From assembly GCF_050920415.1 (NCBI RefSeq), contig NZ_CP169309.1: a stretch of 64,000 nt of DNA. One strand, given 5' to 3'. The position numbers were made by a program. Below, one piece after another: positions 60,801-62,332 of this stretch (position 1 is the stretch's first letter; every line of letters starts with the position of its first letter). Origin of the DNA: Escherichia coli (GTDB lineage Bacteria > Pseudomonadota > Gammaproteobacteria > Enterobacterales > Enterobacteriaceae).

Positions 60801-62332
60801 CGCTGCTCAAGCAGATTAAACAGCGCCATCCGATGCTTCCGGTCATCATTATGACCGCACATTCCGATCTGGATGCTGCCGTCAGCGCCTATCAACAAGG
60901 GGCGTTTGATTATCTGCCCAAACCGTTTGATATCGACGAAGCCGTGGCGCTGGTTGAGCGCGCCATCAGCCATTATCAGGAACAGCAGCAACCGCGTAAT
61001 GTTCAGCTTAACGGCCCGACGACCGATATCATCGGCGAAGCGCCAGCCATGCAGGACGTGTTCCGGATTATCGGTCGGCTTTCACGTTCTTCTATTAGCG
61101 TGCTGATTAACGGCGAATCCGGCACCGGTAAAGAACTGGTCGCTCATGCCCTGCATCGCCACAGTCCTCGAGCCAAAGCGCCGTTTATCGCGCTGAATAT
61201 GGCGGCTATCCCGAAGGATTTGATCGAATCAGAACTGTTCGGTCACGAGAAAGGCGCGTTTACCGGCGCGAATACTATTCGTCAGGGGCGTTTTGAACAG
61301 GCCGATGGCGGCACGTTATTCCTCGATGAAATTGGCGATATGCCGCTCGATGTACAGACGCGTTTGCTGCGCGTGCTGGCAGACGGTCAGTTTTATCGCG
61401 TTGGCGGCTATGCGCCGGTGAAAGTGGATGTGCGGATTATCGCTGCGACCCATCAGAATCTCGAACAGCGGGTACAGGAAGGCAAGTTCCGTGAGGATTT
61501 GTTCCACCGCCTGAACGTTATCCGCGTTCATCTGCCGCCGCTGCGTGAGCGTCGGGAAGATATTCCCCGTCTGGCACGCCATTTTTTACAGGTTGCCGCG
61601 CGAGAGCTGGGCGTAGAAGCGAAGTTGCTGCATCCGGAAACCGAAGCCGCGCTGACGCGTCTGGCGTGGCCAGGTAACGTGCGCCAGCTGGAAAACACCT
61701 GTCGCTGGCTAACGGTGATGGCTGCCGGACAGGAAGTGTTGATTCAGGATTTGCCTGGCGAACTGTTTGAATCAAACGTACCGGAAAGCACTTCACACAT
61801 GCAACCGGACAGTTGGGCAACGCTGTTAGCGCAATGGGCAGACAGAGCGCTGCGTTCCGGTCATCAAAATTTGCTTTCCGAAGCGCAGCCTGAGCTTGAG
61901 CGGACGTTACTGACGACCGCGTTGCGACATACGCAGGGGCATAAACAGGAAGCTGCGCGGCTACTTGGCTGGGGGCGTAACACCCTGACGCGGAAGTTAA
62001 AAGAGCTGGGGATGGAGTGATTCACAGCTTGTGTGTAAAGATTGATTATTGAGCGCAAATTGCTGGTATTTTGCGCTTTACTGTTCCGATAAGTTCAGTA
62101 TGATCTTGCCCGGAAAACGGGGAGAGTCATTATGCTGGAATCAATAATTAATCTGGTATCGAGTGGCGCAGTTGACAGCCACACACCGCAAACTGCCGTT
62201 GCTGCCGTGCTGTGTGCTGCGATGATTGGGCTGTTTAGCTGAAGCTCGTTGTTTATGCCGGATGCGGAGAAAGTCGTAGGCCTGATAAGACGCGACCAGC
62301 GTCGCATCAGGCATCATGCTCAGATGCCGGAT

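Follow-up and report, generated by a model that had tools for sequence, protein, structure and literature searches.

The 36-codon open reading frame downstream of glnG in Escherichia coli is yshB, a conserved gene for a predicted small membrane protein

The short open reading frame (ORF) found downstream of glnG in the window, i.e., the whole stretch of 64,000 nucleotides of Escherichia coli DNA that was analyzed (contig NZ_CP169309.1), is the catalogued gene yshB, already known since 2008, when Hemm et al. described it for the first time (cited in PMC9731577). The finding is therefore correct but ordinary. The sequence-only reading had proposed the name yshB for this ORF and had suggested an alignment to annotated small proteins as a check, and the assignment was borne out by three kinds of database evidence. 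RefSeq annotates yshB at exactly the same position, with the product "YshB family small membrane protein" (WP_000893994.1, from a 100% identical record). The encoded protein is 100% identical to b4686 (YP_002791260.1) of E. coli K-12 MG1655, for which the product name reads "uncharacterized protein YshB". Moreover, it matches the NCBIfam equivalog NF033841 with 72.1 bits versus a curated cutoff of 34 (E = 2.4e-20), and this alignment covers the full length of the protein, spanning residues 1–36 on the profile positions 1–40. Size and motifs of the family, namely 33–41 aa, an ML(E/D)S start and an H-(T/S)-P-Q-T-A-x-A-A-x-L-C-A core, are likewise found, and the gene order glnL-glnG-yshB-hemN is the same in the window, the RefSeq matches and K-12. 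Pfam holds no family for the YshB protein. Evidence against the identity was not encountered, and the claim that this ORF is yshB and encodes a protein can be regarded as practically certain. The explanation as a whole, comprising the known yshB with its own promoter, a strong Shine-Dalgarno sequence and a tail-anchored helix acting on a larger membrane protein, is considered highly probable, with its more specific parts graded separately below.

Translation of positions 62132–62242 on the plus strand from the ATG to the TGA yields MLESIINLVSSGAVDSHTPQTAVAAVLCAAMIGLFS, a protein of 36 aa. The ATG start, the GGAGAG Shine-Dalgarno sequence and the 36 codons can be read directly in the sequence as had been claimed, and the proposed position 3' of glnG is confirmed by an ORF start 111 nt past the glnG stop (62020). 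All features of the locus are compiled in Table 1. It also proved right that the ORF falls under the cutoff of the ORF track, as the default listing starts at 60 aa and the 36-aa frame shows only when the cutoff is lowered to 20 aa. With this lower cutoff (≥20 aa), the number of ORFs overlapping the final 5 kb of the window is 78. The length of 36 codons alone is thus no more than expected by chance, and the case for a gene rests on conservation and database matches. Besides, the Shine-Dalgarno sequence has a counterpart in relatives, where a purine-rich GGAG/GGGG block occupies the equivalent site in an upstream alignment of 25 genera.

Table 1. Features of the yshB locus (positions refer to the window).
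Feature	Position	Strand	Basis and remarks
glnG (NtrC)	60611–62020	+	RefSeq and ORF listing; upstream neighbor fixing the synteny, context outside the yshB unit
-35 hexamer TTTACT, conserved core CTTTAC	62077–62082	+	Consensus scan
-10 hexamer TATGAT, 16-nt spacer	62099–62104	+	Consensus scan
Shine-Dalgarno sequence GGAGAG	62121–62126	+	Read in the sequence; 5 nt 5' of the yshB ATG
yshB CDS, 36 codons and TGA	62132–62242	+	ORF listing and RefSeq CDS with matching coordinates
REP/BIME-type repeat, yshB-hemN gap	62279–62363	.	Rfam naRNA4 RF02564, 71.4 bits (minus) and 49 bits (plus)
hemN, convergent with yshB	62478–63851	-	Coordinates transferred from the RefSeq annotation

Transcription of yshB proceeds from an own promoter of the sigma-70 type (-35 CTTTAC, -10 TATGAT), which is located past the glnG stop and 5' of the ORF, and a strong Shine-Dalgarno sequence drives translation of the 36-residue hydrophobic protein. 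Within the alignment of upstream regions, CTTTAC is invariant in 25 of 25 sequences, GTAT(G/C)AT is nearly invariant across the same 25, and the ATG is conserved as well. From these positions, transcription probably starts near 62111, which would leave a 5' untranslated region of about 20 nt. An own promoter of yshB and the lack of induction by nitrogen limitation have been described (PMC9731577).

Two further non-coding blocks, located between the glnG stop and the -35 hexamer of yshB, are conserved across many Enterobacteriaceae: TGTAAAGAT at 62033–62041 and GCAAATTGCTG.TATTTTGCG at 62055–62076. In E. coli, the second block is arranged as an inverted repeat, GCAAA-N-TTTGC. A consensus RNA structure was not obtained for these upstream blocks with RNAalifold over 25 genera. 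They could represent an UP element, an operator or other regulator site, or a glnG terminator limited to certain species. The GCGCAAA-N9-TTTGCGC sequence just 5' of the -35 hexamer was considered as a terminator hairpin of glnG; it can pair in E. coli but shows no consensus structure across the 25 genera, and its conservation is probably better read as that of promoter or operator sequence. Likewise, a simple terminator scan of 61900–62600 revealed no canonical intrinsic terminator, neither between glnG and yshB nor past yshB.

The region 3' of yshB is occupied by a REP element, embedded in a wider REP-rich stretch at about 62250–62370; the matching Rfam family naRNA4 is itself derived from REP sequences. 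RNA folding predicts a long hairpin at this element with a z-score of -3.7, which likely serves as a stabilizer of the 3' end or as a barrier. An inverted-repeat search over 62230–62480 with a seed of 9 returned nothing, although the REP hairpin is evident from both RNA folding and Rfam. REP sequences are multi-copy in E. coli and placed the 501-base query used for the genome comparison at a median of 28 sites per genome. In the window, the REP element carries a 7-bp insertion (GATGCCG) relative to K-12, and it lies outside the conserved yshB cassette. Upstream in the same gene cluster, the K-12 annotation contains the sRNA GlnZ (b4836), which is derived from the 3' UTR of glnA and located just 5' of glnL; the equivalent glnA-glnL intergenic region is present in the window at about 59376–59549.

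The distribution of the locus within the species was determined with megablast on a set of 5,426 complete genomes of E. coli. With positions 61980–62480 as query (501 bases), the locus was present in 5,401 of the 5,426 genomes at a coverage of at least 80%, and glnG, yshB and hemN were annotated under the match in every record listed. A shorter query limited to promoter and ORF (62070–62245) was found as a single copy in 5425/5426 genomes, in all cases with an identity of at least 95%. Hence, yshB belongs to the single-copy core genes of the species. For comparison beyond the species, 80 loci with one genome per species were retrieved by means of the C-terminal 139 aa of GlnG, and their flanks were searched for homologous frames. 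An intact homologous ORF on the same strand occurs in 43 other species of the Enterobacterales, giving 44 sequences together with the window, and starts 96–264 nt past the glnG stop, mostly at about 110 nt. The carriers include Escherichia, Citrobacter, Enterobacter, Kluyvera, Kosakonia, Serratia, Dickeya, Pectobacterium, and Brenneria, and furthermore Hafnia, Edwardsiella, Budvicia, and some members of Pantoea and Erwinia. The homologues comprise 33–41 aa, with the length differences caused by in-frame changes in the central loop.

The pattern of nucleotide changes in these sequences is that of a coding region. Stops in the yshB frame occur in none of the 44 sequences, whereas the frames +2, +3, -1 and -3 over the same span are interrupted in 36–42 of them. 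In comparison with E. albertii, the window shows six synonymous and no nonsynonymous changes, and nine synonymous and four nonsynonymous changes separate it from Citrobacter youngae. The median dN/dS is 0.24 for unsaturated pairs and 0.12 for pairs with less than 25% divergence, and the entropy at the three codon positions amounts to 0.74, 0.35 and 1.51, respectively. A frame not conserved among relatives had been set beforehand as an outcome that would speak against the ORF; the frame is intact in the 43 other species and the change is mostly synonymous. Accordingly, yshB is coding and conserved.

Its presence among relatives is patchy. About 25 other Enterobacterales lack the yshB cassette without any remnant within 1.5 kb 3' of glnG, with both a protein HMM applied to six-frame segments and a DNA HMM returning no hits. 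Loci lacking the cassette were found in Yersinia, Rahnella, Rouxiella, Rosenbergiella, Tatumella, Pseudocitrobacter, and several Pantoea and Erwinia. The cassette is also absent from the same 1.5 kb interval in all Shewanella and Photobacterium loci sampled. In most of the cassette-less Enterobacterales, an open frame of about 450–480 codons on the minus strand ends approximately 40–100 nt past the glnG stop, which, from its size and convergent position, is taken to be hemN. Such a clean presence or absence of promoter and ORF as one cassette could make yshB usable for phylogenetic profiling.

On the protein level, YshB is a predicted small membrane protein, as indicated by its hydropathy, its annotation and the published cleavage of tagged constructs by the intramembrane protease RseP. 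The GRAVY value is 1.12, with hydrophobic residues at the N terminus, a polar middle part and a strongly hydrophobic C-terminal stretch extending to the last residue. AlphaFold2, run with an alignment of 33 sequences, predicts helices at residues 2–12 and 19–35 joined by a loop, with a moderate mean pLDDT of 72.8. The polar loop ends in a conserved H-T/S-P-Q motif, and in each of nine homologues, chosen to span the most similar and the most divergent ones, the distance from the PQ to the C terminus is exactly 16 residues. In the family alignment, M1, A24 and C28 are invariant, and S4, P19, Q20, A25 and A29 are conserved to at least 90%; the invariant C28 is situated inside the hydrophobic helix. 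The small residues A22, A25, C28/A29 and G/N33 appear to fall on one face of this helix, as judged from the alignment. Lysine and arginine are absent from 31 of the 33 homologues, and the positive-inside rule therefore gives no topology for the family. Such a charge-poor composition is unusual for a membrane protein, since topology is normally set by positive charges. A search of the PDB yielded no chain matching the profile of the YshB family, the sole match having an E-value of 1.2 and thus representing noise.

Experimental reports on the protein are available from several studies. Native YshB was detected by top-down mass spectrometry, and the protein was described as having no tryptic sites (PMC12529367), which fits the absence of lysine and arginine. 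Given this published detection, a refutation of yshB as a coding gene is unlikely. According to an estimate cited in PMC7549839 and PMC10502375, more than 11,000 copies of YshB are synthesized per cell; the His-tagged protein was undetectable in the study PMC7549839. Furthermore, YshB was classified as a "class I" substrate of RseP with positive results in four assays, i.e., with an HA-MBP tag in combination with plasmid-encoded as well as chromosomal RseP, with a 3xFLAG tag, and with purified enzyme, so that the tagged protein was cut both in vivo and in vitro (PMC10470546). The constructs carried N-terminal tags, and the authors caution that tags can alter the topology (PMC10470546). In the same work, each of the small membrane proteins in the screen, YshB among them, had one span predicted by TMHMM or TOPCONS (PMC10470546). 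According to work by Bomjan et al. (2019) that is cited in PMC10470546 and PMC9731577, Salmonella depends on its YshB homologue for replication inside host cells and for virulence.

From the combination of these features, YshB may be proposed as a tail-anchored helix of the inner membrane with a cytoplasmic N terminus and the C terminus facing outwards. The helix would pack against a larger membrane protein in the manner of MgrB, MgtS, AcrZ and CydX, with the invariant or near-invariant face A22/A25/C28-A29 as the putative contact, and cleavage by RseP would limit the level of YshB. This specific mechanism, namely helix packing of a tail-anchored protein under limitation by RseP, is proposed with about even confidence for and against. 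The narrower suggestion that the charge-free helix docks to one specific inner-membrane protein via A22/A25/C28-A29, and that co-occurrence with the cassette could identify the partner, is a tentative one and appears rather doubtful at present. If true, a protein that Salmonella requires for virulence would thereby receive its first molecular function.

Instead of spanning the membrane, YshB might lie at its surface as an interfacial helix-loop-helix hairpin or as a peripheral amphipathic peptide, where its target would be lipids or a protein approached from one side. With just 16–17 residues (16 if counted from the PQ), the C-terminal hydrophobic stretch is short for crossing a membrane, a second hydrophobic helix is located at the N terminus, and flanking positive charges are absent, all of which would suit such an arrangement. 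However, a single span is predicted by TMHMM or TOPCONS, and RseP as an intramembrane protease cuts YshB in vitro and, at the chromosomal enzyme level, in vivo (PMC10470546). The non-spanning arrangement is accordingly judged unlikely and the spanning, tail-anchored helix is retained as the preferred reading.

A function as a membrane-damaging peptide similar to the type I toxins Hok, Ibs, Ldr or Sho, rather than as a regulator of another protein, has considerably less in its favor. YshB is indeed small and hydrophobic, and RseP cleaved it together with Hok toxins in one screen (PMC10470546). Nevertheless, an Rfam search of 61500–63000 on both strands detected REP/naRNA4 alone and no antisense sRNA that could act as antitoxin, YshB is free of positive charges, and the estimate cited above of more than 11,000 copies per cell fits poorly with a toxin. 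Moreover, type I toxins are multi-copy and mobile, whereas yshB, as a core gene, keeps one copy and a fixed synteny in 5425/5426 E. coli genomes, and the loss of the Salmonella homologue lowers the fitness in host cells, as far as cited in PMC10470546 and PMC9731577. A toxin is thus very improbable, and a YshB that acts on another membrane protein remains the favored explanation.

Hardly any weight is left for a chance ORF whose conservation would stem from a non-coding element, i.e., a 3' UTR or terminator of glnG or an NrsZ-like sRNA: short ORFs are abundant by chance, the Pseudomonas sRNA NrsZ is encoded 3' of ntrBC at the equivalent position (PMC9731577), and the simple scan found no intrinsic terminator between glnG and yshB, but the variation is concentrated at third codon positions, the frame stays intact in 44 species despite in-frame length changes, the Shine-Dalgarno sequence and the ATG are conserved, the ORF has no Rfam match, no consensus RNA structure emerges for the intergenic region 5' of the ORF, and the protein itself is detected by top-down mass spectrometry (PMC12529367). 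Membership in an NrsZ-like sRNA class was considered separately and rejected, with neither an RNA family match nor a conserved structure and a clear coding signature instead.

An equally negligible probability is assigned to an overlapping antisense ORF being the real gene, with a 70-aa frame (62095–62307, minus strand) and a 58-aa frame (62141–62317, minus strand) as candidates. The 58-aa frame contains stops in 39 of 44 species. In favor of the 70-aa frame, its dN/dS of 0.15 is near the 0.12 of yshB, and within the yshB span 30 of 44 species show no stop in it, but it is interrupted in the remaining 14, and its start lies inside the REP element, which is not conserved outside Escherichia. 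The low dN/dS arises because this frame shares its wobble positions with yshB and is thus a geometric artefact, while the frame is mostly open because stops can arise only opposite His, Gln and Tyr codons, which are rare in YshB. The 70-aa frame is an artefact of frame geometry and alanine-rich composition and not a gene. The conserved promoter and Shine-Dalgarno sequence are both on the plus strand, and it is these signals, together with the conserved ATG and the protein evidence, on which the strand assignment of yshB rests, rather than on dN/dS. As a general caution, an antisense frame sharing wobble positions mimics purifying selection, so that dN/dS on its own does not suffice to decide on which strand a small ORF lies.

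As yshB has been catalogued since 2008, is annotated routinely in RefSeq and is covered by a curated NCBIfam model, its recovery by a sequence scan matters little in itself. YshB retains some general interest as one of the abundant, functionally uncharacterized small membrane proteins, with an orthologue that influences virulence in Salmonella. Experiments for finding a partner may be designed with the help of the conserved promoter, the invariant cysteine within a face of small residues, the scarcity of lysine and arginine in the family and the patchy, clean absence among relatives.

Compared with K-12, the window shares the identical 36-aa sequence, the position between glnG and hemN, the promoter, the Shine-Dalgarno sequence and the start of yshB. 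The ATG of the K-12 gene is located at 4053757 on the minus strand of NC_000913.3. On the DNA level, it differs by two synonymous changes in the ORF and one change 5' of the -35 hexamer, and 3' of the ORF by four substitutions and a 7-bp indel, the latter situated in the REP element.

The pairs MgrB-PhoQ, MgtS-MgtA, AcrZ-AcrB and CydX-CydAB represent regulatory small inner-membrane proteins that pack against a larger membrane protein. MgrB, MgtS, AcrZ and CydX resemble YshB in their size class and in featuring a single hydrophobic helix, and YshB differs from them in having neither a sequence relationship to them nor a known partner or a solved complex in which it is contained. Flanking positive charges are usual in such small proteins, whereas YshB has none. 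MgrB and CydX were cleaved by RseP in the same screen as YshB (PMC10470546). With regard to phenotypes, a role in virulence and intracellular replication was shown for Salmonella YshB only, and E. coli is not known to have an equivalent. The Salmonella Typhimurium YshB is an orthologue encoded at the same locus 3' of glnG and has been reported to possess a promoter of its own and not to respond to nitrogen limitation by induction (PMC9731577).
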